A DNA stretch of 64,000 nucleotides from IMG/VR virus record IMGVR_UViG_3300027970_000001, positions 75,211-139,210 of that record; one strand, written 5' to 3'. Below are positions 1,314 to 58,385 of the stretch, one piece after another. The notes beneath the pieces are model-generated. The model saw nothing but the letters and a program-made list of their open reading frames with translations, did no database searches and was not told where the DNA came from. The stretch comes from a virus. Numbering within the stretch: the stretch's first letter is position 1; each line of letters starts with the position of its first letter. A program made the position numbers and the translations under genes.

Positions 1314-1724
1314 TCAGCGCAGCAGCCTTTCGAGCGCGACCATAGGCTCCAGGATGCCTGGAACGAGGTCGAACTTGACGGCTTGCTTGATGGGCACCCA
1401 TCGCATGTCGCTGCTCTCCCACGTCATCTTCAGATCGCCGGTCCATCGGCGGCTGACGTAGAGGTGCAAGGTGCCCCAGTCGTGGTGAGTCACCGAGAGG
1501 ATGGAAAGCCCGCGCGGCGTGACCGACACCTCCTCTTGCGCTTCCCTTACGGCTGCTTCGATGGGCGTCTCGCCGGGGTCGACCGTGCCACCTGGCAGGT
1601 TCCACTTGCCTGGCATCCACGGCGCGGTCATCCCCCGCTTTAGCAGGAGGACCTCGTTTCTGTCGTTGACGAGGAACACGGCTGCGCCGCCGCCGACCGC
1701 GTTGCGAGTCACCAGCGGTTGCAA
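1314..1724 (-). CDS. NUDIX hydrolase
   Basis: Nudix box GGTVDPGETPIEAAVREAQEEV; N-terminal VTRN. Confidence 0.9.
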   Translation of the reverse strand: MQPLVTRNAVGGGAAVFLVNDRNEVLLLKRGMTAPWMPGKWNLPGGTVDPGETPIEAAVREAQEEVSVTPRGLSILSVTHHDWGTLHLYVSRRWTGDLKMTWESSDMRWVPIKQAVKFDLVPGILEPMVALERLLR

Positions 1725-1778
1725 TGGCTTACCTGTGTTTTCAGGGGCATTCCGCGGTCGCCATTGCGTGGCTTCAAA

Positions 1779-2021
1779 TCAGCGGATGACGCGCAGCTTC
1801 CGGCCGTCCGCCCCACGGACCATGCTGTCGGGGGCGAGCTTCCAGTAGTTGCAGCAGCCGTAGGTCTTCACGGGCACCTTGAGGCCCATGCAGAAGCCGT
1901 CCTTGTCGCCAAGGTACTGGAGCTTCGAGCAAGTGCCGCAGAAGTATCCGGGGCCCGCGCTCGCGAAGCCCTCGACCTGTACGTATCCGGCGCCGTCCTT
2001 GATCTGCTTTTCGGTCTGCAT
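1779..2021 (-). CDS. small Cys-rich protein, HiPIP-like Fe-S or metal-binding pattern
   Basis: CGTC...GFC...V...GCCNYW spacing. Confidence 0.5.
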   Translation of the reverse strand: MQTEKQIKDGAGYVQVEGFASAGPGYFCGTCSKLQYLGDKDGFCMGLKVPVKTYGCCNYWKLAPDSMVRGADGRKLRVIR

Positions 2022-2037
2022 GGGCCCCCGCGTTGGC

Positions 2038-2307
2038 TCAGCGACGCCGACGGCGTCCGTGTTTGTTGAGGCGCAGCGACAGGCCGGCGCCGCCGGGGCC
2101 GACGTTGAGGAACGAGCCGCCCATGCCTCCGCCGCCGCCGCCGAAGCTCAGGATGGGGAACTTGTACGCCAGGTACCCTAGGCCGCCACCGATGGCCAGA
2201 GCGCCAAGGCCAATTGCCATGGCCGTGCTGTCAGACATCGGCGTCGAAGTGGTGGTCGTGGTGGTCGAAGTGAACTGGCCCAGGCTGGGCGAGTTGAAGT
2301 AGCTCAC
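2038..2307 (-). CDS. single-pass membrane protein, virion-type (MSY leader, TM, LRLN plus Arg tail)
   Basis: MSYFNSPSLGQ; hydrophobic AMAIGLGALAIGGGLGYLAY; ends NKHGRRRRR. Confidence 0.7.
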   Translation of the reverse strand: MSYFNSPSLGQFTSTTTTTTSTPMSDSTAMAIGLGALAIGGGLGYLAYKFPILSFGGGGGGMGGSFLNVGPGGAGLSLRLNKHGRRRRR

Positions 2308-2564
2308 GAGTGCCTCCGATGGCGACGGCGGTTCTTCTTGAAGATGTGCTCGGTCAGGAGCCGATGCTGGCCCATGACGTTGCCGACAATCGCCATGACG
2401 ATGCCGCCGATGACGCCGCCGAACAGCACCGTCTTGGCTCCACCTGACATCTCAGGGGCGGGCGCAGCGGCGGGCGGGGCAGTGGCAGGCGCGACCTGGC
2501 CGAAACCGTTCATCACGATGAAGCGGGAGTCCAAGGACCTCCCACGGGTCGATAGGTGTTGCAT
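2304..2564 (-). CDS. single-pass membrane protein, virion-type
   Basis: MNGFGQ, Ala/Pro linker, TM, FKKNRRRHRRHS; TAnnnT box 7 nt upstream of the ATG. Confidence 0.7.
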   Translation of the reverse strand: MQHLSTRGRSLDSRFIVMNGFGQVAPATAPPAAAPAPEMSGGAKTVLFGGVIGGIVMAIVGNVMGQHRLLTEHIFKKNRRRHRRHS

Positions 2565-3592: not shown

Positions 3593-3736
3593 TCAGTCGA
3601 CCTTCACTGCGCCAGCGGCGATGGGGTCGAAGCCTTGGGGCCAGACGGTTTTGTCGTTCCACTCCGCGCCCTTCAGGTTGGCCCCGGTCAGGTCGGCATT
3701 GCGAAGGTCGGCATCGATCTCCCCGCCTGGAACATC
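3593..3736 (-). pseudogene. start-less pentapeptide-repeat fragment
   Basis: Open frame DVPGGEIDADLRNADLTGANLKGAEWNDKTVWPQGFDPIAAGAVKVD* directly after an in-frame TGA; no start codon. Confidence 0.6.
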
Positions 3737-3939
3737 TCACGCATCGCCCCCCGCGACGCTGACGCTTCCTCGGACGCCTGAGCGTAGGACGCTTCTTCGA
3801 TTTCTCGCCACGGCTCATCGATGCCGATGGTGTTGAAGATGACGCTCAATGTATCGAGCACCACCCACGGCTGCTTCTCACCGTAGAGCTTCTGGATGTA
3901 CTTGAGACGGTCGATGGGCGGGTTCTGGGTCAGCATCAC
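3688..3939 (-). CDS. short, probably truncated paralog of the N-terminus of 17290-19011
   Basis: LTQNPPIDRLKYIQKLY vs LEQNPPADRLRYIAKQY. Confidence 0.6.
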   Translation of the reverse strand: MMLTQNPPIDRLKYIQKLYGEKQPWVVLDTLSVIFNTIGIDEPWREIEEASYAQASEEASASRGAMREMFQAGRSMPTFAMPT

Positions 3940-4808
3940 TCGCCCTCCGTCTCAAACTTGGCGCCCTTCGGCATCTTTACCGGGAACGGGCTTTCTTTTG
4001 GCAGAAGTCCAGGGAACGCCTGCTCTAGCGCAACGCTGGAGGTGCCGTGGTACTCGATCTGAGCGGCTGGGTCGGCGCCTGCCGAGTAGACGACGCGCTC
4101 AACCACGTTGCCATCGCTGGTCACATCGTCGAGCGTCCAGACCTGCCATCCAGCACCTTCCAAGCGCTCGATGTCGGCCTCCGCGTCATCGTCGTCGGGA
4201 GGGTACACAACCTCGTACCACCAGGGCTTGACGGCAGTGACCTGAACCACGCGGTCAAGATCGAAATCGTCCATGAACCTGGTCTGATCGACGAGAATCA
4301 TCAGGACGCGAGATGGAATCTTGCCCGATGACACCCAGTCCGAGATGACGCTGTCCGGCTCGATCCCGGCCTCGCCGGCGTACAACTCCACTGCTTTCAT
4401 CGGGAAGTTGCCCATCCGCTCGAACAGGAAGTCCGACGGGTGGTCCCCGACGCCAAGCTCGCTCATGAAGTCGTCGTTTTGCTCCATCGCGAGCAAGTCA
4501 GCGAACGTCTTGCCTTCCGACAGGCTCTTTGCCACGCCCCGGCGAAAGCCATCGTCCTTGAAGGTGTAGCCAGCCTGGATCATGGCATCGGCGTCCGGCA
4601 GAGGCACCAGCCCCCGCACATCGAGCGCGACGACCACAGGGTAGCCCTTGTTGGCGAGGTGATCCCACGTCGCAATCGCGTAGGCAGCCGCAATCTGCTT
4701 GTCGGTCGTCGTGTGAACCCCGGAGAAATACTCCTCGGGGAGTCCGAACTTCTTTTGCGGCTGGTGAAAGCTCTGCGGTGGCTTGGCCAGCAACGGGTTG
4801 CGACGCAT
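3936..4808 (-). CDS. acidic protein with MRRNP start and ART-like motifs
   Basis: Starts MRRNP; GVHTTTDKQIAAAYA; C-terminal IEYHGTS; TAAGCT 7 nt upstream of ATG 4808. Confidence 0.7.
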   Translation of the reverse strand: MRRNPLLAKPPQSFHQPQKKFGLPEEYFSGVHTTTDKQIAAAYAIATWDHLANKGYPVVVALDVRGLVPLPDADAMIQAGYTFKDDGFRRGVAKSLSEGKTFADLLAMEQNDDFMSELGVGDHPSDFLFERMGNFPMKAVELYAGEAGIEPDSVISDWVSSGKIPSRVLMILVDQTRFMDDFDLDRVVQVTAVKPWWYEVVYPPDDDDAEADIERLEGAGWQVWTLDDVTSDGNVVERVVYSAGADPAAQIEYHGTSSVALEQAFPGLLPKESPFPVKMPKGAKFETEGE

Positions 4809-4907: not shown

Positions 4908-5231
4908 TCAGCGGCGCGAGGTCTTGCGCTTCGAGGTCTTCTTACGCTTCGACGACATCAGGCTCGATTCGAGCCGGCCACGACGCTCGGGAGCGGACTT
5001 CTTCGAGGTGCGCTTCTTCGAGGCAACCTTCTTGGAGGTGGCCTTCTTGGAGGTGCGCTTCTTGGAGGTGGCCTTCTTGGAGGTGCGCTTCTTCGAGGTC
5101 TTGCGCTTGGAAGCCCGCTCTGCCTTGCGCGAGGCGGCCTCCGCGAGCTGATCAACGCGAGCGAATAGACGCATCAGTTCCTGCATGCGAGAGATCAAGC
5201 TATCTTTCGAGGGCAACTTCTTCTTTGCCAC
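4908..5231 (-). CDS. histone-H1/protamine-like basic protein
   Basis: Tandem K[RA]TSK repeats; very Lys/Arg/Ser rich. Confidence 0.75.
   Translation of the reverse strand: MAKKKLPSKDSLISRMQELMRLFARVDQLAEAASRKAERASKRKTSKKRTSKKATSKKRTSKKATSKKVASKKRTSKKSAPERRGRLESSLMSSKRKKTSKRKTSRR
5001..5103 (-). repeat. 15-bp tandem coding repeats (K[RA]TSK)
   Basis: cttcttggaggtggc / cttcttcgaggtgcg units. Confidence 0.8.
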
Positions 5232-5315: not shown

Positions 5316-5816
5316 TCACACGATGAGCGCGTGCTGCGACCAGAAGTCCCTGGCCTCGGCCACGCCTTCCCAGTTCGGGATGGTCGTGTCCCCGGGTTCC
5401 CTCGGAGAGGCGGCTCCACCGTAGGCCGTGTAGAGGACCAAGCCCTCGTGGCCTCCTGTCGGACCGGCAAACACCGTCACCATGCGGACGCGCGGCTTGT
5501 CCCTGGAGTCCTTGAACACTCGGCTGGCGCACTTCCGGTTTCCACGGATGATGTACTTGACCTCCGACTCGTCCACGGGCGGCTCTCCCACGGACGGGCC
5601 GACGAGCGCGCTCTCCACGGTGCCAAGCTCAGGCGGGAGCATCAGGGTCTCGATGAAGAACGAGTTGCGGTCTGCCACCTGCCCAAGCACCCATTCAAGC
5701 TGCTCGGCGGTGAGCCCGTGGTCCACGTGACTCTCGGGGATGACCTTCACAGGATTCATGGCAAGGTGACGTCGCCTGCTGGATTTCCTGTCAGGCCGCT
5801 TGCTGGTGCGCTTCAT
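5316..5816 (-). CDS. conserved phage-type hypothetical protein with basic N-terminal tag
   Basis: MKRTSKRPDRKSSRRRHLAMNP then LYTAYGG.ASPREPGD...FWSQHAL. Confidence 0.75.
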   Translation of the reverse strand: MKRTSKRPDRKSSRRRHLAMNPVKVIPESHVDHGLTAEQLEWVLGQVADRNSFFIETLMLPPELGTVESALVGPSVGEPPVDESEVKYIIRGNRKCASRVFKDSRDKPRVRMVTVFAGPTGGHEGLVLYTAYGGAASPREPGDTTIPNWEGVAEARDFWSQHALIV

Positions 5817-5827
5817 CCCGCAAGATT

Positions 5828-6536
5828 GCTCCGCCTCAAGAGGACGGTCAACGCTCTCGTTGACTTCCTCCGCGGCGGTGATTACATCCGACACACCAGC
5901 CAGGAGATCCCGTTGAGCGAGAACAAGAACCAGGCGCCCCGACGCAAAAAGAAGATCGGGGCCCGCCTGCCCGGACTGCGCCTGCCCAAGTGGGCATCCG
6001 AAGTCGAGACCGACACCTACAAGCGTTTGCGAGCGGCCGTCGCTGCTGCTGGAAACGAGAAGACTTGGTTGGACGCAGCATCGGAGCTTGCCCGCTATGC
6101 CAGGGACAACTTCGGCATGGATGCGGCGGACGCGCTGTGGACCGCGCTTTGGAACTACAACGCGACCCTTCCCGGTGCCAACGCCGCAGTCGTGACGTGC
6201 CCCAACTGCGGCAACCGAGACATGGATCTGATGCTCGTGGAGCGCGTCGAGATTCGCCACGCCAAGCTCACTCGCGCTGTCCGAGAGGAGAGCAAGCCAA
6301 CCCAGGGCGTGTTCCAAAACTTCTTCAAGGACATCGAGCCGAAATACCCCGACTCGGCCCCCGTGACCAAGGGCGTCATCTGGCCCGAGGGATGCCGGCA
6401 CCAGGAGCTTCGAGTCCGCTGCGCCGTCTGCGATGAGGCATGGGAAGGGCTCGACGAGGTCGACTTCGACCCCGGCTACAGCGGCAGCCCAGACCCGATG
6501 GAACCGAGGGCCACGCCCAAGACGATGCTGAACTAG
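5828..6536 (+). CDS. hypothetical protein with two CxxC pairs (start uncertain)
   Basis: Good codon bias from about 5840; CPNC and CAVC. Confidence 0.55.
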
Positions 6537-8183: not shown

Positions 8184-8552
8184 TCACATACCAACGGGAA
8201 CGAGCTTGGTTCCGCGCGCAACGCGGTGAGCCTCAGCCCAACCACGCGGGACTTCAAGCACAAATCGGTATGGACCGCCGGGCTCGATGCTGCGGTGGCT
8301 CATCGGCACCCCCTGCCTCACCGACACCACACGCCACATGGCGTCGATGAAGATGATGTCCAGAGGCAGGGGCGTGTCCTTCATCCAGAACGCGCCTGAG
8401 GCGGCACTCGGGAAGGCGAACAGCATCCCGGTACCGGCGGGCAGCGAGCGGACGCCCATGAGGCCCTGGGCAATCTCGTCGGGCGTCGAGGCGACGCAGA
8501 CGCGCACCGAGCCTGCCCCCGGCACCATCACAGACGGCGGCGTGTAGCTCAT
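8184..8552 (-). CDS. DUF192 family protein
   Basis: VASTPDEIAQGLMG...GMLFAF....FWMKDTPLPLDIIFID...VLEVPRG. Confidence 0.9.
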   Translation of the reverse strand: MSYTPPSVMVPGAGSVRVCVASTPDEIAQGLMGVRSLPAGTGMLFAFPSAASGAFWMKDTPLPLDIIFIDAMWRVVSVRQGVPMSHRSIEPGGPYRFVLEVPRGWAEAHRVARGTKLVPVGM

Positions 8553-10006
8553 CGTCGGCTCAGCGGCTTGTACGGCTCATCGAACGAGCGGTTCGGCGTG
8601 AAGCGGCGCCGGCTGTTCTTGGCAAGCTCTCTGGCCGCGTCGAAGTCGTTCACGCTTGTTGGGTTGACGCCGATGTCGGTGAAGACTTGCTTCCAGAAGG
8701 TCACCTCTTCGGGGAACTTGAAGTTCGTACCGGATTCGTGCTTGCTGGCGTAGCCTGGGGTGCGGTTGGTTGCGCCCTTGATCTGCTTGATGGCCTGGCC
8801 TCGGTCGAAACGTGCCAGCTCAGCCGGCGTTGTACCCAGGCGCTCCAGCTCCGCGCGACTTCGTGGCTCCTCGACCACGCTGTAGAACGACGAGTCTACC
8901 TCAAGCGTGAAGCGAGGCTTGTCGTTTCTGTCTCGCAAGCTCCAAATCTCAATCCTGCCGTCGACCACGGCCTTGATGTAGCCCATGCCTTTGTCGCCTA
9001 CGCAGTGCTTCATGCGCGTGCCCTCGGCCCGCAGGTCCGAGGAGCGCAGCTTGATGAGCCGCCAGGGCGCCTGCTCGATGAGGACGCCCTTGGTCACGCC
9101 CATCTGCCGAAGCTCGTCGGCGGAGAAGGTGGCGATCTCTTCTCGATCGATGCTTCCGCCGCCTTCGATGGCCTTGTAGTAGTCGCGGATTTTCTCGACG
9201 ACTTCCGAGCGGTCTTCGTCGTCGTCGGCCTCCGACCACGACGCGGCTAGCTCGATGAGATCATCCCTGGTCGGGGGCGTCAAGGTCAGCTTGCTCCTGA
9301 GCTGCTCCTTTTCGTCTTGAGCCACGATCTCGACGGCTGAGCTGATGAAGCTTCGGATTGCCTCGTCAGGGTCGCGCTTGATCAACTCACGCAGGTAGTC
9401 CTTGATGATGTCGTGGCAGAACTCCTCAAAATCATTTTCTTTCGCCACGATTGAGACGGATTGGTACCCGTCAGTATGTCCGCCCTGCTCCTGGATGACG
9501 CTGGTGCCTTCTGACCAGTCGATGCTGACGCCGATATTTTCGTAGAACTCCTCGGCATACGAGGCCGGCACCATTCCACAGTTCTCAAAGAGTTGGCTCT
9601 CGTCGAGCCATACGCTCTCGCGTGGAGTGAAGCTCCACTCAAACCCGTATCCTGCCCGTCGCAGTCCCCCGTCGGATTTGAACTCGAAGATTCCGGCCTC
9701 GCCCCGACGCCGCTGATTCATCCGAGCCTGGTATGCCAGCGCCTCCTTCACGCTGTCCTCGGGGACGTGGCTTAGGTCGGGACTGCTCTGCTCCATCACC
9801 TCATCGAAAAAGTTCGAGTCGTATCGGACGATGTCTTCGATCGAATACTCCTCGGTTTCGCAATGGAGTTGGTCCAGGTCCAGCCTTGGCGCGAACTCTT
9901 CGATCTTGCTCTCGATGTCCTCGCGTAGCTCTTCGTCGCCCGCGGCAAGAGCCGCCTCAACCTGATCTCTTGAAGTGGCATCGCTCAGCAGCATCACATC
10001 CTCCAT
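8549..10006 (-). CDS. acidic protein with C-terminal PcfJ-like domain
   Basis: LRAEGTRMKHCVG...IWSLRDRNDKPRFTLEV...QIKGATN; ends LAKNSRRRFTPN. Confidence 0.7.
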   Translation of the reverse strand: MEDVMLLSDATSRDQVEAALAAGDEELREDIESKIEEFAPRLDLDQLHCETEEYSIEDIVRYDSNFFDEVMEQSSPDLSHVPEDSVKEALAYQARMNQRRRGEAGIFEFKSDGGLRRAGYGFEWSFTPRESVWLDESQLFENCGMVPASYAEEFYENIGVSIDWSEGTSVIQEQGGHTDGYQSVSIVAKENDFEEFCHDIIKDYLRELIKRDPDEAIRSFISSAVEIVAQDEKEQLRSKLTLTPPTRDDLIELAASWSEADDDEDRSEVVEKIRDYYKAIEGGGSIDREEIATFSADELRQMGVTKGVLIEQAPWRLIKLRSSDLRAEGTRMKHCVGDKGMGYIKAVVDGRIEIWSLRDRNDKPRFTLEVDSSFYSVVEEPRSRAELERLGTTPAELARFDRGQAIKQIKGATNRTPGYASKHESGTNFKFPEEVTFWKQVFTDIGVNPTSVNDFDAARELAKNSRRRFTPNRSFDEPYKPLSRR

Positions 10007-10236
10007 TCCCAGCCGGGACCAAGCGGCAGGTTGTCATACCGGGGGTCGACAATTAACAGACCTCGGTCTAGCGGGATGAGCCTGGCCGAGTAGCGTCCGG
10101 TGAGCGTCACAAGCTCGCGTTGAACGCCAGCGGCACGGGGCTGGATGCGGAGGAAGGCGGATTCAGGGAAGCAGATCTTCCCATCCGCATCCACCGTCTT
10201 CACGGGAGGCGCAGCGCCGAGGTACCTGTAGGTCAC
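9994..10236 (-). CDS. small hypothetical protein (MTYRYLG start)
   Basis: TGa-TACCAT 6 nt upstream of the GTG. Confidence 0.5.
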   Translation of the reverse strand: MTYRYLGAAPPVKTVDADGKICFPESAFLRIQPRAAGVQRELVTLTGRYSARLIPLDRGLLIVDPRYDNLPLGPGWEWRM

Positions 10237-31494: not shown

Positions 31495-31504
31495 CGTCGT
31501 CTCC

Positions 31505-47445: not shown

Positions 47446-47453
47446 GGCTGACC

Positions 47454-49096: not shown

Positions 49097-49111
49097 GACA
49101 TCTCCACGCGT

Positions 49112-49810: not shown

Positions 49811-49858
49811 GCGAGCACTCTACCCTAAGTGGGTGTCACGTGCGACGCGCCTGACTAT

Positions 49859-50284
49859 TCAGCGGCGCGTGCGACGGGCCCGGCGAGCGCGGCGGCGGCG
49901 ATTGGCCGCGACAGCGCGGGGCGCCGGCTTGCTGCCGAACGCGAGGTAGCCGATGAGGCCGAGCGCCACGAGCGACGCCGCTCCGATGCCGACGTACAGC
50001 ATCGTGTTGTCCTCGGGCTCGGGAGCCGGGGCGAGGGCCGGCGCGCCAGGCGCGACCGTGGGCGCAACTTGCATACCGGTGTAGCTCGCGGACTTGTTGT
50101 CGAGCATTGGGTCGGCGCCCGACTTGTCAGCCGTGGTCGACTTCGCCTGCCCGAGAGCCTGCATGCCCGAGAAGATGTGCGCGTGGAACAGGCCCGAATC
50201 GGCCGTCCGCTTGAACGCGTGATCGGGCTGACCCTCGTCGCCCATGCCCTGGAATAGTCCGCCCTGGAAAATGCCGTTGTCCAT
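49859..50284 (-). CDS. virion-type C-anchored membrane protein
   Basis: GIFQGGLFQGMG; TM; VAANRRRRARRARRTRR. Confidence 0.75.
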   Translation of the reverse strand: MDNGIFQGGLFQGMGDEGQPDHAFKRTADSGLFHAHIFSGMQALGQAKSTTADKSGADPMLDNKSASYTGMQVAPTVAPGAPALAPAPEPEDNTMLYVGIGAASLVALGLIGYLAFGSKPAPRAVAANRRRRARRARRTRR

Positions 50285-50356
50285 TTTGAGTCCTCCGAAG
50301 ATACAGCGCTGAGCGACTGTATCATGAATGAGATGATTGTGAAGTAAACTTGCGCC

Positions 50357-51448
50357 TCAGCGGCTGCTGCGGCGCTTTGCTCGGCGGCGACGGTTGGCTG
50401 CGATCTTCTTGGCCTGCTGCTTCTTCCAAAAGAAGTAGCCAGCAGTACCAGCAGCGAGCACGCCCACGCCGATTGCGATGTGGGTCGTGGTGATGCCGCC
50501 GGATGCGGCCGGAGCAGGCGCTGGCGCGACAACAGCAGCCGGGGGCGCCTCGGCGGTTCCGGGGGGAGCAGCGGGAGGGGCCTCCGAGGTCGCAACGACC
50601 TCTGCGGCGACATCGACAACCTGATCGACGGACTCGCCGCCGGAGTTGAAGGCGTCAAGGTCCGCCCGCGGATCTGCCACCTTCTTCGATTCGACGTCGA
50701 CCGCGTTGGCCTTCTGCTCGGCCTGCTTGACGTCGGCGGAAGCGTCGGAGGCGACCTTCTCGGCCTGCTGGGTCTTGGCGTCGACCTGCTGAACCTCAGC
50801 GGCCTTCTTGGCGGCCTCCTCGGCAAGCCGCTTGGCTTCCGCCAACTTGGCGGCAGCTTCGGCTGCGGTCTTGGCAGAAGCAGCCTCGGCGGCCTTCTTT
50901 TCGGCGGCAGCGGCAGCGGCAGCGGCCTCCTTCTTCTTTCGGCTCAACTCGGCGTCCAAGGCCGCGAACCTCGCGAGCGCGGCGGCCCCGTCTGCACGCT
51001 GCTTTTCCACGGCCTTGAGCGCGGCCTTAGCAGCCTCGGCCTTGGCAACGTCGGTGGCGCTGAGCCACGCGAAGTAGAACGCGGGCTTGTCGAGCGCAAC
51101 CACGTTCAGGCGGCGAAGCGTATCGGACAGCGACGGGTTGCGGATGAACCCAATGGCCTCTCCGGCGTAGAAGCCACGGAGACGCGCGTCAAGCTTGTTC
51201 CGCTTGTTCAGGTCGTCTCGCACGTCCTGGCTGAACGGGCCAATCCAAGCGCCGCTACGGCCTCGGGCGTATGCCGCAGCAAACGCCTGGCTGATGAACT
51301 TCCCGGGAGCATCCGGGCTGAACTTCATCGCCGTTTCAACAAGCCACTTGACATAGGGGTCCGTGCCAGCCGGAATCGCGGCGGAGGTCGGCGACAGCTT
51401 GACGCCAAGGGTCAGGGGAGCGAGCCCGAGGTTGTGATGGTAGGTCAT
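50357..51448 (-). CDS. virion-type membrane protein with Ala/Lys coiled coil
   Basis: MTYHHNLGL; TM; IAANRRRRAKRRSSR. Confidence 0.75.
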   Translation of the reverse strand: MTYHHNLGLAPLTLGVKLSPTSAAIPAGTDPYVKWLVETAMKFSPDAPGKFISQAFAAAYARGRSGAWIGPFSQDVRDDLNKRNKLDARLRGFYAGEAIGFIRNPSLSDTLRRLNVVALDKPAFYFAWLSATDVAKAEAAKAALKAVEKQRADGAAALARFAALDAELSRKKKEAAAAAAAAEKKAAEAASAKTAAEAAAKLAEAKRLAEEAAKKAAEVQQVDAKTQQAEKVASDASADVKQAEQKANAVDVESKKVADPRADLDAFNSGGESVDQVVDVAAEVVATSEAPPAAPPGTAEAPPAAVVAPAPAPAASGGITTTHIAIGVGVLAAGTAGYFFWKKQQAKKIAANRRRRAKRRSSR

Positions 51449-51455
51449 CGTCGAT

Positions 51456-52343
51456 TCACTTCTTGATGGTGGTCGTCTGATGAGCGCTGCGCAGCGTGGA
51501 TGCGAGCGTGGCAGAGGGCGCCCGGAACTTCAGCGCGGAAGCCGAGAGCGAGACCTTCGCGGTGGGGCCGGGAGAAGAGATGAGGCTGCCAAATACGGGG
51601 GCTCGCACGGTCACGCCGGCAAGAGCGCCTGCCACCTGCTGCCGGGCCGCAATCTGACGCGGGCTAGGCTGCGTCAGGATGTTGGTGAGCAGCTCGTCTG
51701 AGATGCGGATCTCATCGCCGTTGGCGTTCGGTCCGAAGTTGATGCCGCTTGGCCAGTAGCCGACGTTGGCACCCTGAGCCTTGGCCTCGGTGTACCAGTT
51801 GCCAAGGGCCGTCACCATCGCCGACTCGTCCTTGGTCGAGACGGGCTGGCTGTTGTCCAGATACTTGGACTGAACCAGCTTGTTGTAGATGGCGTCGGAG
51901 TAGAGGTGGTCGCCCTGAGAGAGGCGCACATACCCGTCCTCGGTGTTCTTACGCCACATCGAGCGCGGCTCGCGCAGCAGGGCGTAAAACGCCTTGTTGA
52001 TGCGAAGGTCCTTCGACTCGTTGGTGTTCGGTCCGAAGTTGAACTCGCCCCTGGCTCCGGGCCAAAGCTCCTTGGCTCGTCCCATCCTGACCCAGACCGA
52101 GCGCAGGGCGCGCATGAAGGGCCCGTCTTCCTTGAGCTGGCCGTCCACGCGGGGCGCCGTAACGAGCGGAGAAACAGCTTGCAGGCGCTTCAGGATTGCG
52201 AGCATGCCACCGAGCACCGCGTCGTCTCCAACGCGGCCCCAGTCCTGCTCATGCTCGAACTGCTGCATGTAGCTGCCGTTCTCGAACGGGGGCAGTTCGC
52301 CGGAGTTCGTGACGGCGATTTCGCCAAGCCTGCTGTAGCTCAT
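51456..52343 (-). CDS. virion-type protein with an internal duplicated domain
   Basis: MSYSRLGE; FNFGPNTNESKDLRI vs INFGPNANGDEIRI. Confidence 0.7.
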   Translation of the reverse strand: MSYSRLGEIAVTNSGELPPFENGSYMQQFEHEQDWGRVGDDAVLGGMLAILKRLQAVSPLVTAPRVDGQLKEDGPFMRALRSVWVRMGRAKELWPGARGEFNFGPNTNESKDLRINKAFYALLREPRSMWRKNTEDGYVRLSQGDHLYSDAIYNKLVQSKYLDNSQPVSTKDESAMVTALGNWYTEAKAQGANVGYWPSGINFGPNANGDEIRISDELLTNILTQPSPRQIAARQQVAGALAGVTVRAPVFGSLISSPGPTAKVSLSASALKFRAPSATLASTLRSAHQTTTIKK

Positions 52344-53782
52344 CGCATCCTCTTGTTCCGACGGCGGTTGGCCACCATCTCAGGGGAAGGCGCCGCAGCC
52401 AGCTTGCGCTTCTGCCGGCGCTTCTTGACCAGGCGCACGGCGACAGCGCCGCCCACGAAGATGAACGTGCCGCCAGCCATCCAGGCCCAGCGCGGCATGC
52501 CGTGGAAGTCGCGCATGAACCAGGAGAGCGGGACTTGCTGCTCGGCCTTCTGGAGCTTCGCCACCGCGGCGTCGATGCCAGCGAGCGCCTGGTTGATGGC
52601 GTCCGAGTTGTTGCTCAGGGCCGACGCCGCGGCCTCGCCGCGCTCGAAGGCGGCGGCGACCGAGCGAAGAAACCCGTCAAGCGACCTCTGGGCCACCGAG
52701 AAGTACATGCAGCGGCGGTACTCGCGCGCGACGCCGATGTTGATCTTGGAGATCTCAGACTGAACGTCGGCCAGAACCTCATCACGAATCTTCTTGGCGA
52801 AACTGCCGTTCGGGTCGTCTTTGGCGGCGACCTCGGTCTGCAACGCAGGGATGTTCCCGACCCCGGTCACAATCTCGGCCCGCGCAGTCGTAAGCTGCGA
52901 TTGAAGCTGGGCAAGCTGCTGAACGGTCTGCTGGGCCTGATCGGACGGGGCTCGCAGAGCAGCAGCGACGATGCTGTCTACTTGTGCAAGGGCGCCGGGA
53001 ACGGCGGCCACGTTCTGGGCGGCCTTGACGACCGAGTTGGCGAGAGCCTCGAAACCCGACGTCATCGCCCGCGCGTCCCGTGTGATGGCCGCTCGGCCAC
53101 CAAGCAGACTGGCGAGCGCCTCGACCGTCACGACCAGGCTCACAGCGGAGGCGGTTGCGGCGGCCTGGAATGCCTGGTCGCTGTCTCCGCTGACGGTAAC
53201 GGGAAACCCAGGAACGAAGATCGTGGGAGCGCCGACCTTGCCATAGGCAGACTTGACGATGTTGGTAACGAGCCTCGTCACCGTGTTGAGGGGCACGGCC
53301 CCAGAGAACTGCAACCCAACCCAAAGCGTGCCGGACGAGGGGCCGCCGCTGGGGTCTTTCATCCAGCCCGAGGTCACAAGCGTGGGAGGAGCAGAAATCG
53401 CCCCGGACAGCTTGAACTTGGCAACCTCTTCGATCAGCGGCTGACCGCCCTTGCCGCCGCCATAGATAAGCTCAAGAGCTTGAGCTGCCTGGGCATCCGA
53501 GATGGCGACGAGGGGAACCGCCACCGCAACGGCCGTGTTGGCAGGGATGGGGTTCGGAGCCGCGACCGGCTGCTTCATCAGCGCGCACTCGGGCGGCACA
53601 ATGATGAACGGGTTGCCCGAGGTCGGCGCGCTGGCCGCTGCGCCAATCTGGCCAAGACGCTCCCTGGCGCTCGGCGAGATCTTCGACAGCCCGCTCGGCA
53701 TCTTGTCCGCCGACACATCGGCGCCGACCGTCTCGGGCACCTTCGGCAGATCTTGGCCCATGCCAGTATAGCGGTAGGTCAC
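52340..53782 (-). CDS. virion-type membrane protein with long helical ectodomain
   Basis: MTYRYTGMGQ; TM; MVANRRRNKRMR. Confidence 0.75.
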   Translation of the reverse strand: MTYRYTGMGQDLPKVPETVGADVSADKMPSGLSKISPSARERLGQIGAAASAPTSGNPFIIVPPECALMKQPVAAPNPIPANTAVAVAVPLVAISDAQAAQALELIYGGGKGGQPLIEEVAKFKLSGAISAPPTLVTSGWMKDPSGGPSSGTLWVGLQFSGAVPLNTVTRLVTNIVKSAYGKVGAPTIFVPGFPVTVSGDSDQAFQAAATASAVSLVVTVEALASLLGGRAAITRDARAMTSGFEALANSVVKAAQNVAAVPGALAQVDSIVAAALRAPSDQAQQTVQQLAQLQSQLTTARAEIVTGVGNIPALQTEVAAKDDPNGSFAKKIRDEVLADVQSEISKINIGVAREYRRCMYFSVAQRSLDGFLRSVAAAFERGEAAASALSNNSDAINQALAGIDAAVAKLQKAEQQVPLSWFMRDFHGMPRWAWMAGGTFIFVGGAVAVRLVKKRRQKRKLAAAPSPEMVANRRRNKRMR

Positions 53783-53796
53783 AGCTCTCTCCGATT

Positions 53797-54153
53797 TCAG
53801 CGGCGCGTGCGGCGACGCTTATTTGGCGAGACAGGCTTCTTCTTGCTGACGGCCATGATCGCGATGCCGGCAATCAGCACGAGGCCGACTCCTCCAGCAA
53901 TCAGCGCGTACATGACAGCGTTGTCTTCGCTCGTTGCGCCCCGCTGACTTGCGTTGAGCAAGCTGGTTGCGAACGCGTCGGTATCCCTCTCTTGGCGAGG
54001 ACGATTCGCAACCGTCTTGAACACCTCGTCCACCGAAGTGGAAGTTGACTCGCGACGCGCGGACGCAGCGGACTTTTGAGATCCGGCGCCCGAGGCGTCC
54101 TTGCCTGCCGAGGACGACTCTTGAAACCCCATGCCTCTTGAATGGTACATCAC
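53797..54153 (-). CDS. virion-type C-anchored membrane protein
   Basis: MYHSRGMGF; TM; VSPNKRRRTRR. Confidence 0.75.
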   Translation of the reverse strand: MMYHSRGMGFQESSSAGKDASGAGSQKSAASARRESTSTSVDEVFKTVANRPRQERDTDAFATSLLNASQRGATSEDNAVMYALIAGGVGLVLIAGIAIMAVSKKKPVSPNKRRRTRR

Positions 54154-54500
54154 CGACCTCGCCGCCTGCGCCTGTTCGGCTTCATCGACCCGCTCGACCG
54201 CATCAGGCTGATGAGCGCAATGATCACGCCCGTGAACCCAAGAAGCTCCATCCGCATCGCTCGCGCGTCGCGGTCCTGCTCGCGCAGCTCGGCAGCGGTC
54301 ACAGCCGGAGCCGGGGCCGGGGCCGACTCAGAGCCAGCCTCGCCAAGGTGCCAGTTGGTCAGGTAAGGAGGGACCGTCTGCGCCACCATGGGCGAGACCT
54401 GCCCGCGGAGCCGCTGCGGCTGGCCATAGTTCGCCCAGACCCACGGATTCATCACGTAGGCGGGCTGGTAGCCGAGCGACCTGTTCACCCTGTAAGACAT
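54150..54500 (-). CDS. virion-type C-anchored membrane protein
   Basis: MSYRVNRSLG; TM; MKPNRRRRRGR. Confidence 0.75.
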   Translation of the reverse strand: MSYRVNRSLGYQPAYVMNPWVWANYGQPQRLRGQVSPMVAQTVPPYLTNWHLGEAGSESAPAPAPAVTAAELREQDRDARAMRMELLGFTGVIIALISLMRSSGSMKPNRRRRRGR

Positions 54501-54973
54501 CAGTAGGCTCCGTGATGATAGTCGCCGAAGCCAGAGGTGCCCTTCGGCAGAGACGCCTGCGATCCAACAGGGGACGTGACATTGGGGACAGGGGCCGCCG
54601 CCGAAACAGGCGCGGCGCTGGCCGCCGGAGAGGTGGCCGACATCGCCATCAGCTTTGGCAAAAGACCGGCGGTGGGGGATCCGGGGGGCGCGGACGCAAT
54701 CTTGCGACCCATCTCCGAAGCGGTGAGCGACGCAAACCCATCGACCAGCGCCTGCTTTTCACCGTCGCTGAGGGTGCCCCAGAAGGTGTCAAATCGCTCC
54801 TTCGACACAGGCCGCTGATCTGACGCGGCCCACGGCCGCTTTTGGTAGGAGTCCCACCCGGCAGAAGCGCTGAGCTTCCCGCCGCCGGAAGCCATCCGGT
54901 AAACGAGATAGCCGCCTCCGACGACGAGCGCGCCAACTAGGAGAGTGTTGGCGGTATCAGGGTTCTTCCGCAT
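54500..54973 (-). CDS. N-anchored membrane protein (inverted arrangement)
   Basis: MRKNP, TM, C-terminal SGFGDY. Confidence 0.7.
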   Translation of the reverse strand: MRKNPDTANTLLVGALVVGGGYLVYRMASGGGKLSASAGWDSYQKRPWAASDQRPVSKERFDTFWGTLSDGEKQALVDGFASLTASEMGRKIASAPPGSPTAGLLPKLMAMSATSPAASAAPVSAAAPVPNVTSPVGSQASLPKGTSGFGDYHHGAY

Positions 54974-54974: not shown

Positions 54975-55277
54975 TCACTTCTCCTGGGTCTCAAGCTCGG
55001 CGATCCGGGCCTTCATGCTCGAAAGCTCGTTGGCCTTCATCTTCTTGCTGCGCGGACGCCAGTAGCCAAAGTAGAACCACGCGCCGCCGACCGAGAGCGC
55101 GCCAGCGGCGAACATCGTCGCCGGGTGCAGGGCGAAGCTCTTGACGTTGTCGATGAACCCGGGCTGAGCCGGAGGCTCCGTCCCCATGGGGATGCCATAG
55201 AGAGGGTACGGTGCCATGCCGGCGACGGCAGGCGCCCCGCCGGAAGCCTGAGCTGCGTACTGAGCGGGGTTCATCAC
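54975..55277 (-). CDS. small membrane protein
   Basis: TM then KKMKAN. Confidence 0.7.
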   Translation of the reverse strand: MMNPAQYAAQASGGAPAVAGMAPYPLYGIPMGTEPPAQPGFIDNVKSFALHPATMFAAGALSVGGAWFYFGYWRPRSKKMKANELSSMKARIAELETQEK

Positions 55278-56737
55278 TTGCTCCTGCGGCTACGACGCCG
55301 CTTCTTGTTCGCCTTGAGACCGAGCGCGCTGCGCGTGTTGGCAACAACAGCGGCCGTGACCTCCTGGCCCTTCTTGGTGTGCGTCGCGATTGCCCAGATG
55401 GCAACGCCGGCCGCAACGCCTAGGGCCACGTTGCGCATGGTGTTGTCCTGCGCAATCGGAGCGGGGGCAGCGGGAGCGACGGGAGCAGGAGCGGGGGCAG
55501 CGGGCTCGCTGGCAACTTCACCCATGCCGGCGGCTGCGGGCGACTGATACAGCTTGGCGATGTCAGCCTTGGCCGCCGCCTTGTTCTTCGTCAGAGGGGC
55601 GAGGTTCTCGACCGCGCTCTTGCGGAGCTTGGCCTTGTTCTTCACCACGTGCGCGCCCATCGCATCGAGGCTGGGCAGACGAGTGCCCTGGCGGCCCGAG
55701 GACAGGTCCGAAATAGCCGCGTGCATCGCGCAGTGGGCAATCGTGTCCTCAAGCGCCTTCTGAGCGGGCATGCCCATTCGGATCATGCGCTCGGCCACCT
55801 TGTGGCACTTCTCGGCCATTCCGGGCCCAAGCGAGCCGATGGCCCGGACAAGGAACGCCTGGCGGTCCGCAGGGCTTGCCTTCGAGGCCGCCTCAAGCAG
55901 CACGACCGACGCAGCGTCGCGGCCGAACTTCTCGATGCGGCTCGATTGATTCATCATCACTGGACGGAGATGATTGGTGAACGGGCTGTAGGTCCGGTCG
56001 ATCATCGGGCGCCCGCGAAGGCGAGGCACCGTCGTCGAGAAGGTCACACCGCCGCCCGAGGGCTGAACGACGCGCCAGTTGTCGGCCACGACGTCGAACA
56101 TCTCGCTCTGCTGGGTGCCCAGCTCGTCCTCTTCGGCAATGTAGGCCGGGAACGCGTACTGGTGGGAGAACGAACCGTCCTCCGCGCGCCAGGTCACGCC
56201 TTCTTCCATCTCGAAGATGCCGTTGCCGATGACAGCGTCCGAGCCCGAGGCGAACTCGTAGCTCGTGCGGTCATACATCGTCTCCGGGTCGACGTCGGCA
56301 TTCGACGGCATCCTGTTCATCTGAGAAGGCTGGTACTGGCTGACCTTCATCACCGAGTCGACGGTGATCTCAGCCGCATCCTCATTACCAGACAGATCGG
56401 TCCTGGCCATCGACATCGGACGATACCCTCCGCCCGCTCCGGGCCCCCACGGTGAAGCTCCGAACGTCGTCTGCTGAGCGTCCGGGCCATCATATTCCGG
56501 CTCCATCTCGTACTGAGAGGTGCCTTCAACATCAGGAGCGGGAGCCGCGCCAGATCCTGGAGTGGACCGAACATCCTCCTGTAGGTCGTCATCCAGAAAG
56601 GTCCCCTCGGACGAGATGTCCGCGTAGTCCTGAATGTCGAGGTTTGCGTTGCCGCGCATGGTCGGAATCGCCATGTCGTCGCTACCAAACAGATCCAGAT
56701 CATCCAGCTCGTCGCTCATTGTGTCTCCGGCGCGCAC
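55274..56737 (-). CDS. acidic virion-type protein with C-terminal anchor
   Basis: AGMGE, TM, LKANKKRRRSRRSK. Confidence 0.75.
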   Translation of the reverse strand: MRAGDTMSDELDDLDLFGSDDMAIPTMRGNANLDIQDYADISSEGTFLDDDLQEDVRSTPGSGAAPAPDVEGTSQYEMEPEYDGPDAQQTTFGASPWGPGAGGGYRPMSMARTDLSGNEDAAEITVDSVMKVSQYQPSQMNRMPSNADVDPETMYDRTSYEFASGSDAVIGNGIFEMEEGVTWRAEDGSFSHQYAFPAYIAEEDELGTQQSEMFDVVADNWRVVQPSGGGVTFSTTVPRLRGRPMIDRTYSPFTNHLRPVMMNQSSRIEKFGRDAASVVLLEAASKASPADRQAFLVRAIGSLGPGMAEKCHKVAERMIRMGMPAQKALEDTIAHCAMHAAISDLSSGRQGTRLPSLDAMGAHVVKNKAKLRKSAVENLAPLTKNKAAAKADIAKLYQSPAAAGMGEVASEPAAPAPAPVAPAAPAPIAQDNTMRNVALGVAAGVAIWAIATHTKKGQEVTAAVVANTRSALGLKANKKRRRSRRSK

Positions 56738-56768
56738 TGTGACTCAAAAGTGATGCGTTGTGAAGCCG

Positions 56769-57461
56769 TCACTTTAGAGCGATGACGAGGCCGACGATTG
56801 CAATCGCGGCAACCCCGCCGCCGATGGCCAAGGTTCGGATCATGTCGGACCGAGCAGCAAGGCGCGCGGCCTCCTGGCGACCCTGAACTTCAGCAAGGCG
56901 GATGGCTTCGTTTGCCCTCGCGGCAGCCACCTGCGACTCCAGGGCGATCTGCTCCTGATTGCAGCCAGCCGTCTGAGCGGCTGCTGCGCTGCCCTGCATA
57001 AGGGCGCCGCCCTTTAGCAAGCCACCCGAGAAGGTCTCCGTGTACCCTGCAACGAGCTGGCTGCCGCCTGCGCCCACGATGCAGAAGCCTTTCTGGAGGT
57101 CCTTCATGAAGTCGGCGCCAAGGCCACCTCCAGAGAGAGCCTCTGCGCTGCGCTGAGCGGCGCTTGCCTGCAACAAGAAGGCGGTCTGATCTGCTAGGTG
57201 GTTTGCGATAGCCAGCCGGATCGCATCGAACATCGCCTGGCTGTCGCTGACGCCCGCTGCGAGCAGCCTGTCGTACTCGGCGCTGGCGGTCTTAGCCAGG
57301 CCGTTCGACACCTTGTTGACCTCTGACACGAGGGCAGCGCGGCGGCGAGATGGAGGCTTCTTGGCCACCGACAGCATGATGTTTGCCGCGATGAGAGAAG
57401 AGCGAGCCAGGATGGGATCGCTCTTTGCCGCAGTGCCAACTTTGATCTGTGCAGCCATCAC
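56769..57461 (-). CDS. helical C-anchored membrane protein; shares a domain with 55274-56737
   Basis: K.P..R.A.LV...G.A...R....G....A..D.I pattern; GGLG. Confidence 0.7.
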   Translation of the reverse strand: MMAAQIKVGTAAKSDPILARSSLIAANIMLSVAKKPPSRRRAALVSEVNKVSNGLAKTASAEYDRLLAAGVSDSQAMFDAIRLAIANHLADQTAFLLQASAAQRSAEALSGGGLGADFMKDLQKGFCIVGAGGSQLVAGYTETFSGGLLKGGALMQGSAAAAQTAGCNQEQIALESQVAAARANEAIRLAEVQGRQEAARLAARSDMIRTLAIGGGVAAIAIVGLVIALK

Positions 57462-57823
57462 TTGCTCCTCGAACGACGACGATTCTTCTTGACGGCGGGC
57501 TTTGCAAACCCCTGGCCCAGCGCGTAGGCGAGGGCGAGGGGGCCAAGCAGGCCGCCCGCGAGCGCCCAGAGCGCCGTCGATGTGACGTCGCTGGACCTCC
57601 GGTAGCCGTGGTAGGCAAGCGCCCCGGCAAACAGCGCGTTGACCATCGCAAGCGTGGCCAGACCGCCGCCCGCGAACACGCCAGACAGCCCGCCACTCTT
57701 GTCGGTGGACTCCTTGACGCGGAACACGGTCAGCGTCGGATCGACGGTGCTGACGGGGATGGCCCTCAGCCCCGGAAGGCCGCCGTCTTGAGCGTAGTAT
57801 CCACGTTGCGATTGCTGGCGCAT
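57458..57823 (-). CDS. two-TM membrane protein with Arg tail
   Basis: Ends VKKNRRRSRSK. Confidence 0.75.
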   Translation of the reverse strand: MRQQSQRGYYAQDGGLPGLRAIPVSTVDPTLTVFRVKESTDKSGGLSGVFAGGGLATLAMVNALFAGALAYHGYRRSSDVTSTALWALAGGLLGPLALAYALGQGFAKPAVKKNRRRSRSK

Positions 57824-57824
57824 C

Positions 57825-58385
57825 TCACACCTCGAAAATGGTGTACTGCTTCACCCGGTCGAGCATCTTCTGCGTGCGCCGCCCAGCAACCGGGTCGAGC
57901 ACGTACCAGAGCTTGGTCCGAGGGTCTTGGGCGCGGCAGAAGACGTGCGTGTGGGACTTCAGCTCGCCCATCCGGCGGGGCTGAAACCCGACGGTCACGA
58001 AGTTCACCTCAGCGCCGACGCATAGGCATCCGGCCGCGATTGCCGTGGCCATGTCATCGCAGTCGAGCGCTGAGACGCCGACGTTGATGTCGTCGATCAT
58101 CCGCTCCGGGTCTCGAATCATCTCGACATGCAGCGGGTCACGGGTGTATCGGCCCGCGTTGCCCCACCACCGGCAGATGGCGATGATCTCGGACTCGTAA
58201 GCCTTCGGCCGAACCCGGTTGACGATTTGTTCGGTGTGGCGCCGAACCTTGATTGAGCGCTCGCCGCGGTCGCCGCGAACTAGCTCGATCATCTTGGCAA
58301 CGGTGTGATCGGTGCCTTGATAGGGCTCCACCGTGCCAACCGCCTGGTTGAACGACGGAGCGTAGTTTTCGGCTCGTAGTCGCAT
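57825..58385 (-). CDS. transglutaminase-like (papain-fold) cysteine protease
   Basis: YTRDP...E...DP...LDCDD (Cys), THVF (His), VLDP (Asp). Confidence 0.8.
   Translation of the reverse strand: MRLRAENYAPSFNQAVGTVEPYQGTDHTVAKMIELVRGDRGERSIKVRRHTEQIVNRVRPKAYESEIIAICRWWGNAGRYTRDPLHVEMIRDPERMIDDINVGVSALDCDDMATAIAAGCLCVGAEVNFVTVGFQPRRMGELKSHTHVFCRAQDPRTKLWYVLDPVAGRRTQKMLDRVKQYTIFEV

Follow-up and report, generated by a model that had tools for sequence, protein, structure and literature searches.

A Phi-x-x-N motif beside polybasic tags in an uncultured virus lineage: a putative maturation cleavage site

The 64 kb of the virus record IMGVR_UViG_3300027970_000001 considered here (the window) are densely coding, mostly on the minus strand, and are part of an uncultured lineage of high-GC (guanine plus cytosine) bacterial viruses with genomes of 150-300 kb. 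Many of their proteins carry the tetrapeptide Phi-x-x-N, where Phi is a hydrophobic residue, beside a run of basic residues. Judged from the window and its relatives, the motif is a genuine position-specific and portable peptide signal, in which Phi at -3 and the Asn go together with a polybasic or RTS-type tag next to them, and it is very probably functional. The preferred reading, given a probability of about one half, is that an endoprotease cuts Phi-x-x-N after its Asn during maturation, at the junction of a protein body with a detachable Arg/Ser/Thr-rich segment. Except at the intein junctions described below, a slash marks the bond that follows the Asn.

Enrichment of the motif at protein termini

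The gene set comprises 77 open reading frames (ORFs) from a custom codon-bias caller, to which 5316-5816 (minus strand) was added. Every motif quoted in the first-pass annotation of this DNA (LRLN, FKKN, VAAN twice and others) was found in it, and the estimate of about 30 carriers compares well with the 28 of 75 window proteins that have a site by explicit criteria. That annotation had also held that the tetrapeptide is common by chance and that its position is the signal, and had called for a comparison with shuffled sequences. Among the 74 proteins used in these tests, the bare Phi-x-x-N is only mildly enriched at termini (23 at C-termini against 9.95 in whole-protein and 8.71 in terminal-30 shuffles; 19 at N-termini against 11-13), whereas Phi-x-x-N-[KR]2 lies in the last 25 residues of 12 proteins. 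This is far above the shuffled controls, which give 0.14 when whole proteins are shuffled, 0.37 when only the last 30 residues are, a procedure that preserves tail composition, and a maximum of 3 in any shuffle. Likewise, N[KR]3 was observed 11 times against 0.08 and 0.51, and the first 25 residues hold five cases of [KR][KR]NP and nine of [KR]N[PA], against 0.06 and 0.94, respectively, in both kinds of shuffle. The tag [KR]TS[KR][KR] is present in 22 copies in 11 proteins, with 0.26 expected.

Could the pattern be an accident of composition in a high-GC (63-65%), Arg-rich proteome, or a translated DNA repeat? The high-GC, Arg-rich genome would favour such an artefact, but its probability is close to negligible given the gap between observation and composition-keeping shuffle, and given that the motif recurs in genomes only 64-74% identical in their most conserved protein. 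Moreover, Asn is encoded by both AAC and AAT and the Arg run uses six different codons; this variability indicates selection on the peptide and excludes a translated DNA repeat.

Twelve proteins had been described as carrying a transmembrane helix, the motif and an Arg tail. All of these motifs are present, and a C-terminal hydrophobic helix is supported by hydropathy in about 11 of the 12, but the VAAN of 46100-46789 is internal. The order in the membrane carriers is helix, juxtamembrane KK/RR cluster, motif and Arg run; as the first KK/RR cluster already follows the helix, the Arg run is an extra module beyond the needs of topology. This bears on the possibility that the tails are positive-inside topology signals, or the inherited module of one expanded membrane-protein family, and that the Asn is functionless. 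Most C-terminal carriers are in fact single-helix membrane proteins clustered at 46-58 kb, and similar proteins of distant lineages end in plain KK/RR. Yet the motif and the tags also occur on soluble and plainly unrelated enzymes, at N-termini and inside a polyprotein-like protein, and N and Phi are conserved when the rest of the tail is not. In addition, BLAST among the window proteins with trimmed termini gave zero pairs at E < 1e-3, and paralogy of the carriers was rejected as an explanation. A role in topology or simple family inheritance is thus highly improbable.

Conservation, coupling and orientation

The motif is not confined to the window. Each of four complete or near-complete relatives, taken as whole genomes, has 8-14 C-terminal carriers. 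When these and the window are pooled, Asn precedes 49 of 192 C-terminal runs of [KR]3 or longer but 19 of 362 internal runs, on an Asn background of 2.6%. The pooled logo gives the consensus [KR][KR]-[VMLI]-x-[KPAR]-N-[RK]n; in 42 of the 49 Asn-preceded runs the -3 residue is V, M, L or I. The two positions are coupled: before a C-terminal [KR]3 run, Phi stands at -3 in 41 of 47 cases when the preceding residue is N, in four of 33 when it is S and in one of 18 when it is A, and D, E and Q before basic tails have no such coupling.

Orthologs retain the N and the Phi while the rest of the tail diverges, so that Phi-x-x-N next to a basic tail persists in related contigs, as the first-pass annotation had asked to see. 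In one family, for example, the tails read SMKPN/RRRRRGR, KKMASN/RRKRRKAAR, KKMAAN/RKRSRRSR and KRVRRN/RRRR. The tags themselves are gained and lost between orthologs. The retention of N and Phi, together with this variable presence, indicates a module that is both conserved and portable.

The orientation of the module is mirrored between the two ends of the proteins. At N-termini, basic-basic-N-x outnumbers x-N-basic-basic by 23 to 10, whereas at C-termini N-then-basic outnumbers basic-before-N by 37 to 16 (Fisher p = 7e-4). A cut after Asn would consequently remove the tag at either terminus.

The polyprotein-like core protein

A protein of 850-920 amino acids (aa) is conserved across the lineage (39782-42334 in the window, minus strand, 850 aa) and looks like a polyprotein precursor of small basic peptides. 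It begins with a conserved leader of 25 residues that ends G-M-E-P-N. Arg/Ser/Lys-rich segments follow, bracketed as VKKN/PKYVVMN/RRRTSRK...LRRN/V; that is, the internal basic segments are bounded on both sides in the orientation predicted by cleavage after Asn. Beyond them lie hydrophobic helices and GEYVxQPMSG[LMF]G repeats. In the relatives the corresponding proteins contain tandem arrays of 12-17 residue units, each ending Phi-x-R-N, as in SRRRRSRRTSVRRN/SRRRRSRRTSMRRN/. Nearly all the Asn residues of one of them (G001) are in the motif, 27 of 29 where shuffles give 5.1 on average and at most 12, and in those of the other genomes the counts are 21/35, 14/25, 18/27 and 12/29.

A second repeat class occupies the C-terminal third of the window protein (39782-40400), where tandem GEYVxQP[ML]SG[LMF]G units have an (M/L)-x-G-x-G core resembling the adenain consensus; the adenain family was not detected.

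The same sequence facts would fit an uncleaved docking or assembly signal, bound by capsid, scaffold, membrane, packaging factor or DNA, in which the tags are permanent DNA-binding arms. Permanent Arg-rich nucleic-acid-binding arms are known from capsids, in the C-terminal domain of hepatitis B core and in baculovirus P6.9, and [KR]TS[KR][KR] tags also occur without the Asn motif (e.g. the 107-aa protein 4908-5231). However, one would not expect a binding epitope to read one way at N-termini and the other way at C-termini, nor to stand at the end of every unit of a tandem Arg array, and the strict Asn and Phi(-3), with nothing preferred after the Asn, look like non-prime-side recognition by a protease. 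For these reasons docking without cleavage is judged rather unlikely.

A possible maturation pathway

From these patterns we infer cleavage and its scissile bond, the identity of the enzyme, a location in the virion and DNA binding, and they can be combined into the following scheme. Until they are cut off, the tags would tether membrane proteins and enzyme cargo, either to DNA or to assembly proteins of poly-acidic character. The cargo comprises the ADP-ribosyltransferase (ART)/GNAT polyvalent protein, the SNF2 helicase, the protein that weakly matches a GHKL-type ATPase, and the NUDIX and PcfJ-like proteins. N-terminal basic leaders (basic...Phi-x-x-N/P or /A) and C-terminal Arg tails (Phi-x-x-N/RRRR) would then be removed, and cleavage of the core polyprotein of 850-920 aa would yield many protamine-like peptides of 8-36 residues. 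Once released, these would neutralise the DNA in the particle. The best candidate for the cutting enzyme would be a 186-aa Cys-His-Asp protein encoded at 57825-58385.

Much of this was foreshadowed in the first-pass annotation, which proposed basic tags that load cargo and are removed after Asn. The signal has turned out to be real and conserved, and mirrored orientation, peptide arrays and a gene with a cysteine-protease fold fit the proposal; the analogies drawn with legumain and with FlhB/YscU have not survived. The legumain family C13 (PF01650), like C14 (PF00656), is absent at E 0.1 from five genomes (G001-G005, 90-100% complete, the set covered by all family searches), and neither matches the window proteome. 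FlhB/YscU-type autocleavage, for its part, cannot account for N/R sites in disordered tails.

The last point weighs more generally on protease-free cleavage, in which the Asn would cyclise to a succinimide and break the following bond, as in asparagine peptide lyases. Asn-Pro bonds are self-cleaved in FlhB/YscU and reovirus mu1, and here N/P is found at 16 of 79 N-terminal candidate sites and at seven of the 13 Asn residues in the polyprotein-like ortholog of the distant locus L059. Known lyases, though, need a folded active-site context, whereas the sites in question lie in low-complexity tails and the C-terminal ones are mostly N/R; the requirement for Phi at -3 also points to recognition by a partner. 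Spontaneous cleavage is accordingly very unlikely.

The transglutaminase-like candidate enzyme

The gene at 57825-58385 (minus strand) is the second most conserved of the structural module (63-73% identity across genomes) and lies within the core of that module in every genome examined. Its 186-aa product is the only protease candidate found in the module. It belongs to the transglutaminase-like (papain-fold) superfamily, on the evidence of profile matches of its homologs, the triad order C...H...D and a predicted papain-like alpha+beta fold. The atlas score to Transglut_core clusters is 0.97, and a profile search with the family collected 2036 clusters of relatives. PF01841 is matched by 46 of 64 diverse and six of 19 close homologs (best E 1.3e-16); the window protein itself falls below the PF01841 threshold, and its ortholog in G001 reaches 2e-4 and that in G003 1e-3. 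A few of the 64 match DUF553, Peptidase_C93 (PF06035, two of the 64) or Pei. D108-C109-D110, H147 and D164 are conserved, H147 and D164 being invariant and C109 present in at least 90% of the 64 sequences.

The AlphaFold2 (AF2) model has a mean predicted local distance difference test score (pLDDT) of 95.4. Its top Foldseek matches are all transglutaminase-like: 3isr (a putative cysteine protease), Rad4, PNGase, LapG, TglA, PeiP and TG2, with probabilities up to 1.0, a best E of 3e-4 and a TM-score of about 0.5. LapG is a site-specific endoprotease. A profile search of the family against the PDB returned only spurious matches to designed Kelch repeats, and these were discarded. In homologs P0241-P0243 and P0266 an intein, a Hint module with in some cases a LAGLIDADG domain, is inserted directly before C109, the junction reading ...VD/CFPEG...TVSN/CDD....; inteins typically sit at essential active-site residues.

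Other protease families were sought in the five genomes. Peptidase_C5 (PF00770) was not detected, S78 (PF04586) and ClpP (PF00574) were absent with good controls, and S77 (PF03420) gave no match, in a search whose control was uninformative. In a literature search, neither a phage protease specific for Asn nor a maturation protease of transglutaminase-like type was found described.

That the 186-aa protein cuts the motif is a tentative prediction, and several observations weigh against it or against cleavage as such. In the distant loci L051, L057 and L059 the enzyme is kept together with arrays of C-terminally anchored proteins, and their tails are short KK/RR stubs lacking Phi-x-x-N-Rn. The Asn-Arg tail is thus an elaboration of the window's own clade, and the existence of lineages with the enzyme but not the tails makes the link between enzyme and motif a weak one, of association only. 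The conserved partner of the enzyme may instead be a class of proteins with an M-S-Y...G-x-G leader, or something else: the M-S-Y leader heads the gene arrays beside the enzyme gene in the distant lineages and is possibly its more ancient partner. Transglutaminase-fold viral enzymes can also be cell-wall isopeptidases (PeiP and PeiW are among the fold matches), and the protein may equally be one like PeiP. Papain-fold proteases usually read a hydrophobic P2 rather than P4, so that the cut could fall at another bond of the motif. Finally, membership of the carriers in the virion is assumed from gene position only, N-terminal sites depend on the start codons picked by the home-made caller, and the short N-terminal M-x-x-N class, with N as residue 4 and no basic leader, is near background and mostly noise.

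A different chemistry would have the enzyme act on the side-chain amide of the Asn, either cross-linking it to lysine in an isopeptide 'chainmail' or deamidating it. Transglutaminase/PNGase-type folds typically attack side-chain amides, transglutaminases typically act on flexible termini, and the capsid of HK97 is stabilised by Lys-Asn isopeptides. No transglutaminase is known, however, whose acyl donor is Asn rather than Gln; a role as cross-link donors is difficult to reconcile with tandem arrays of up to about 27 motif sites in a single Arg-rich protein, and the distant relatives that have the enzyme but not the tails also count against this chemistry. It is considered unlikely, and cleavage after Asn is retained as the preferred reading.

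The leader class is found in the window as well. An M-[STAH]-Y start is carried by 10 of 75 proteins, usually with G-[LMF]-G or LGQ within about 10 residues, and most of these proteins have a C-terminal helix. Such leaders occur at 2038-2307, 8184-8552, 9994-10236, 30703-31059 and in the interval 46100-54500, and at 7156-13023 of L051.

Two phosphatase-like signals were also encountered, a weak dual-specificity-phosphatase (DSPc) match at 656-1144 of L057, near the enzyme gene, and an ORF of G001 (156257-156697) whose start looks phosphatase-like by eye. By analogy with baculovirus P6.9, control of DNA binding through phosphorylation of the RRxS/T-type tags is conceivable.

Carrier proteins of the window

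The carriers are encoded on the minus strand, with the exception of 19509-22940. At one end of the window, a small hydrophobic-tailed protein (2038-2307) ends LRLN/KHGRRRRR and a small membrane protein (2304-2534) ends FKKN/RRRHRRHS. The 290-aa protein at 3936-4808 starts MRRN/PLLAKPP, and its ortholog in G004 has a longer leader with IRSN/VLLAKPP at the aligned place. The 107-aa protein 4908-5231 has six [KR]TS[KR][KR] tags. It is followed by a 166-aa protein (5316-5816) with the leader MKRTSKRPDRKSSRRRHLAMN/P (MKRTSKR..LAMN/P) and a GC content at third codon positions (GC3) of 0.80 on the minus strand. The latter gene and 5826-6536 (plus strand) face each other across 5316-6536, and long antisense ORFs overlap both.

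Soluble enzymes are among the carriers too. The PcfJ-like protein (8549-9994) has the tail LAKN/SRRR.., with IKSN/RGARR, VAPN/RRSSRR and LASN/ in its orthologs. A 290-aa protein (12134-13006) starts MKRTSRRPRRN/P. In the polyvalent protein at 13025-14986, which has GNAT and ART-PolyVal domains by Pfam and the tail ITKN/RRTSKRTSRRRR, four of the six Phi-x-x-N lie between Pfam domains or before the tail, the linkers carrying MSKN/P, MDRN/G and ILRN/P. The hexapeptide-repeat transferase (15638-17287) starts MTRRN/P and ends IVPN/KSHRD. A soluble protein of 573 aa (17290-19011) has both an N-terminal MTRLEQN/PP and a C-terminal IEKN/RKRRTSREAR, and its N-terminal x-x-x-N/[PA]P is retained in the paralog 3688-3939 and in orthologs.

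The 1143-aa protein on the plus strand (19509-22940) bears the leader MATKRTSRRPVSRN/A (KRTSRRPVSRN/A) and a weak GHKL-type ATPase match (HATPase_c_3, PF13589, 24.0 bits, under the cut-off of 25). Its G005 ortholog starts MTRRSSRRPTRN/P, that of G002 starts MTRN/F and that of G001 has no such start. The SNF2 helicase (25690-28041, by Pfam) has an N-terminal MRGIISRN/A and, 26 residues before its C-terminus, VQRN/R. A 143-aa protein (31090-31521) carries the N-terminal tag RKKTSRKTSKRAPAKRTSRK. Next to the polyprotein gene, the 232-aa protein at 39052-39750 has the basic leader MKSNRRNIRRARREMRRN/P and a C-terminus resembling that of the polyprotein; in all its orthologs a divergent basic run comes first and x-x-R/K-N/[PA..] after it. 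The leader of the NUDIX-domain protein at 44115-45326 is MMVHRRTSRPLKRN/V.

Most of the C-terminal carriers cluster beyond this point. The protein at 46100-46789, which has an MAY leader, contains the internal VAAN/RRRRRKSSR and an RTS tag. In a series of proteins a transmembrane helix is followed by VAKN/RRRR (46816-47445), VQPN/RRRLGSGRGRR (48236-49096; the G005 ortholog ends VRAN/RRRRRRS), VAAN/RRRRARRARRTRR (49859-50284; also in the near-identical contig L001), IAAN/RRRRAKRRSSR (50357-51448), MVAN/RRRNKRMR (52340-53782; VAKN/RSRRSRRR in G004 and VSKN/RRRSR in G005), VSPN/KRRRTRR (53797-54033), MKPN/RRRRRGR (54150-54500; orthologs MASN/RRKRRKAAR, MAAN/RKRSRRSR and VRRN/RRRR) or VKKN/RRRSRSK (57458-57823; orthologs VRSN/ARRRR, VARN/RRRRRW and VTKN/RSGRK). 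The membrane protein at 54500-54973 starts MRKN/P. A 481-aa core protein (55274-56719) ends LKAN/KKRRRSRRSK, and four orthologs keep [ILM]-x-x-N and a basic tail.

The 182-aa core protein 61290-61838 has a poly-Asp/Glu C-terminal tail, a possible electrostatic partner of the basic tags. Long poly-Asp/Glu tails also end the G001 proteins 133107-134978 and 146598-147091. Proteins of this type could be scaffold-like electrostatic partners of the polybasic tags.

The virus lineage and its particle

The window (62-69% GC) encodes one tRNA-Leu and gave no DNA match by megablast to 50,697 phage records. Its recognisable genes are, by Pfam, enzymes typical of large phages and conjugative elements: besides the polyvalent protein, the SNF2 helicase, the weak HATPase_c_3 match, the PcfJ-like protein and the hexapeptide transferase, there are a GP88 protein, two NUDIX proteins, a PAPS-reductase/DUF3440 (IbrA-like) protein and a LAGLIDADG endonuclease. 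The SNF2 protein is only about 30% identical to those of known phages. In the 30-62 kb block nothing beyond the IbrA-like, LAGLIDADG and NUDIX genes and negligible hits was matched in Pfam or PHROGs, and PHROGs gave nothing useful for 20 structural-module proteins and their homologs.

The most conserved protein of this block, of 264 aa (38064-38858), has more than 250 metagenome homologs, including some on IMG/VR contigs of 153-298 kb, two of which have direct terminal repeats and are rated complete. Five homologs lie in metagenome bins named Phycisphaeraceae, Planctomycetota, Lentisphaeraceae, Deltaproteobacteria and Acidobacteriota, no more than a hint at hosts in the Planctomycetota/PVC (Planctomycetes-Verrucomicrobia-Chlamydiae) group. 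A literature search found no description of the lineage.

Terminase families PF03237, PF03354, PF17289 and PF04466 and the A32 packaging ATPase (PF04665) are absent from the five genomes, though divergent terminases are possible. Pfam scans of the window and G001 turned up no portal or capsid family, only enzymes appearing among the matches listed (25 of 49 families for G001), among them Peptidase_M23 and a DUF2201 metallopeptidase-like/VWA pair. Core proteins with no Pfam or PHROG match include 38064-38858 (264 aa), 33388-34371 (327 aa), 32686-33372 (228 aa) and 58813-61287 (824 aa), and PDB profile searches with the 264-, 824-, 327- and 481-aa core proteins found no relative. The 264-aa protein has a weak atlas lead (0.75) to PM2 P2 and PRD1 P3; hhalign against PM2 P2 was negative, and the AF2 model is poor (pLDDT 46) because the alignment is shallow, with 28 rows at least 64% identical. 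The lineage may have an unrecognised particle architecture.

Two genes within the structural block may be singled out. A free-standing LAGLIDADG homing endonuclease gene (36313-37956) is flanked by the 264-aa gene and the IbrA-like gene; among the relatives, L002, L006 and G001 have it, and others do not have it at that place. The IbrA-like gene (34464-36316), conserved in G001, lies at mid-block, where it overlaps a gene of 217 aa, and with no terminase detected it may have a role in DNA handling or packaging. At the far end of the window (60001-64000) the GC content reaches 0.69, and ORFs beyond 62400 are weakly coding, with translations that are repetitive and rich in Ala and Arg; the structural module may have its edge here, or the stretch may be non-coding or consist of repeats.

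Significance

The widest version of the proposal is that an undescribed lineage of 150-300 kb genomes, perhaps with Planctomycetota/PVC hosts and having no recognisable terminase, portal, HK97 or double jelly-roll capsid gene, relies for particle maturation on an Asn-directed code that a transglutaminase-fold cysteine protease reads, such that dozens of proteins are cut at Phi-x-x-N, about a dozen membrane proteins and the enzyme cargo lose their Arg tails, and the 850-920 aa polyprotein is chopped into protamine-like, genome-condensing peptides. Adenovirus-like core chemistry would then have evolved independently in a prokaryotic virus. As a whole this is possible and is offered with considerable reserve.

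If the motif is a cleavage site, no earlier maturation system of a prokaryotic virus would have been specific for Asn, and none would have used a protease of the transglutaminase fold; a polyprotein from which Arg-rich, DNA-condensing peptides are made would likewise be new to bacterial viruses. To the initial observation the analysis adds the polyprotein arrays, the transglutaminase-like candidate enzyme and the statistics across the clade. The motif would also serve as a sequence rule that predicts virion cargo in an uncultured lineage; the predicted cargo includes ADP-ribosyltransferase/acetyltransferase polyvalent proteins, helicases and NUDIX enzymes, which may be injected with the DNA. 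With its homologs of the most conserved protein and more than 2000 enzyme-family clusters, the virus group appears widespread and unrecognised. The short portable module of tag and site could, in addition, be put to use as a tool for packaging and release.

Comparison with known systems

In adenovirus, the cysteine protease AVP cuts (M/I/L)-x-G-G/x or (M/I/L)-x-G-x/G (the slash here marking the AVP cut) on pVII, pX/mu, pVI, pTP and others, and frees very basic DNA-condensing peptides such as mu, as is proposed here. Common to both systems are a hydrophobic residue four positions before the cut, presumed in the present case, and the occurrence of the site on many unrelated proteins. The differences are Asn rather than Gly before the presumed cut, a candidate fold that is transglutaminase-like with no Peptidase_C5, a bacterial host, and a large tandem polyprotein of Arg peptides. 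The (M/L)-x-G-(L/M/F)-G class of the same genome resembles the adenain consensus more than the Asn motif does.

The T4 capsid-targeting sequence with gp21, and phiKZ gp175, which processes inner-body and ejection proteins, likewise involve removable terminal leaders, which direct cargo to the head, and a consensus of three to four residues on many head proteins. Their S77/S80-type serine proteases cut after Glu, at (L/I)-x-E or (S/A/G)-x-E, and the internal peptides are acidic or neutral, whereas here the key residue is Asn and polybasic tags are found at either terminus and also within proteins. Cleavage after Glu of the (L/I)-x-E type is not borne out in this lineage: the conserved residue is Asn, and D, E and Q are not coupled to Phi(-3).

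LapG (Peptidase_C93) offers a parallel for the enzyme, being a small site-specific Cys-His-Asp endoprotease of the transglutaminase fold, by whose action a membrane-associated substrate loses a terminal module. It is, however, periplasmic and calcium-dependent, it recognises a di-alanine site in LapA, and nothing ties it to Asn. With legumain and the asparagine peptide lyases (the coat proteins of nodavirus, tetravirus and reovirus; FlhB/YscU) the system shares only a break after Asn. Several of these lyases act in virus maturation, and N/P is the bond broken in reovirus mu1 and FlhB, but they act once in a folded protein, whereas the motif here is portable and linear and is found on dozens of proteins.

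A sortase, exosortase or archaeosortase signal consists of motif, transmembrane helix and basic cluster, whereas here the order is transmembrane helix, basic cluster, motif and Arg run; such a signal was rejected on account of this order and because the motif is also on soluble proteins and N-termini. The [KR]TS[KR][KR] tags, in turn, recall the Arg/Ser(Thr)-rich RRxS repeats with which baculovirus P6.9 and the C-terminal domain of hepatitis B core neutralise nucleic acid; these, unlike the tags, belong to eukaryotic viruses, and neither release from a polyprotein nor punctuation by a motif of cleavage type is known for them.

The system is thus a member of none of the adenovirus, T4 or phiKZ types; adenovirus core maturation is its closest functional analogue, and the head processing of T4 and phiKZ comes next.

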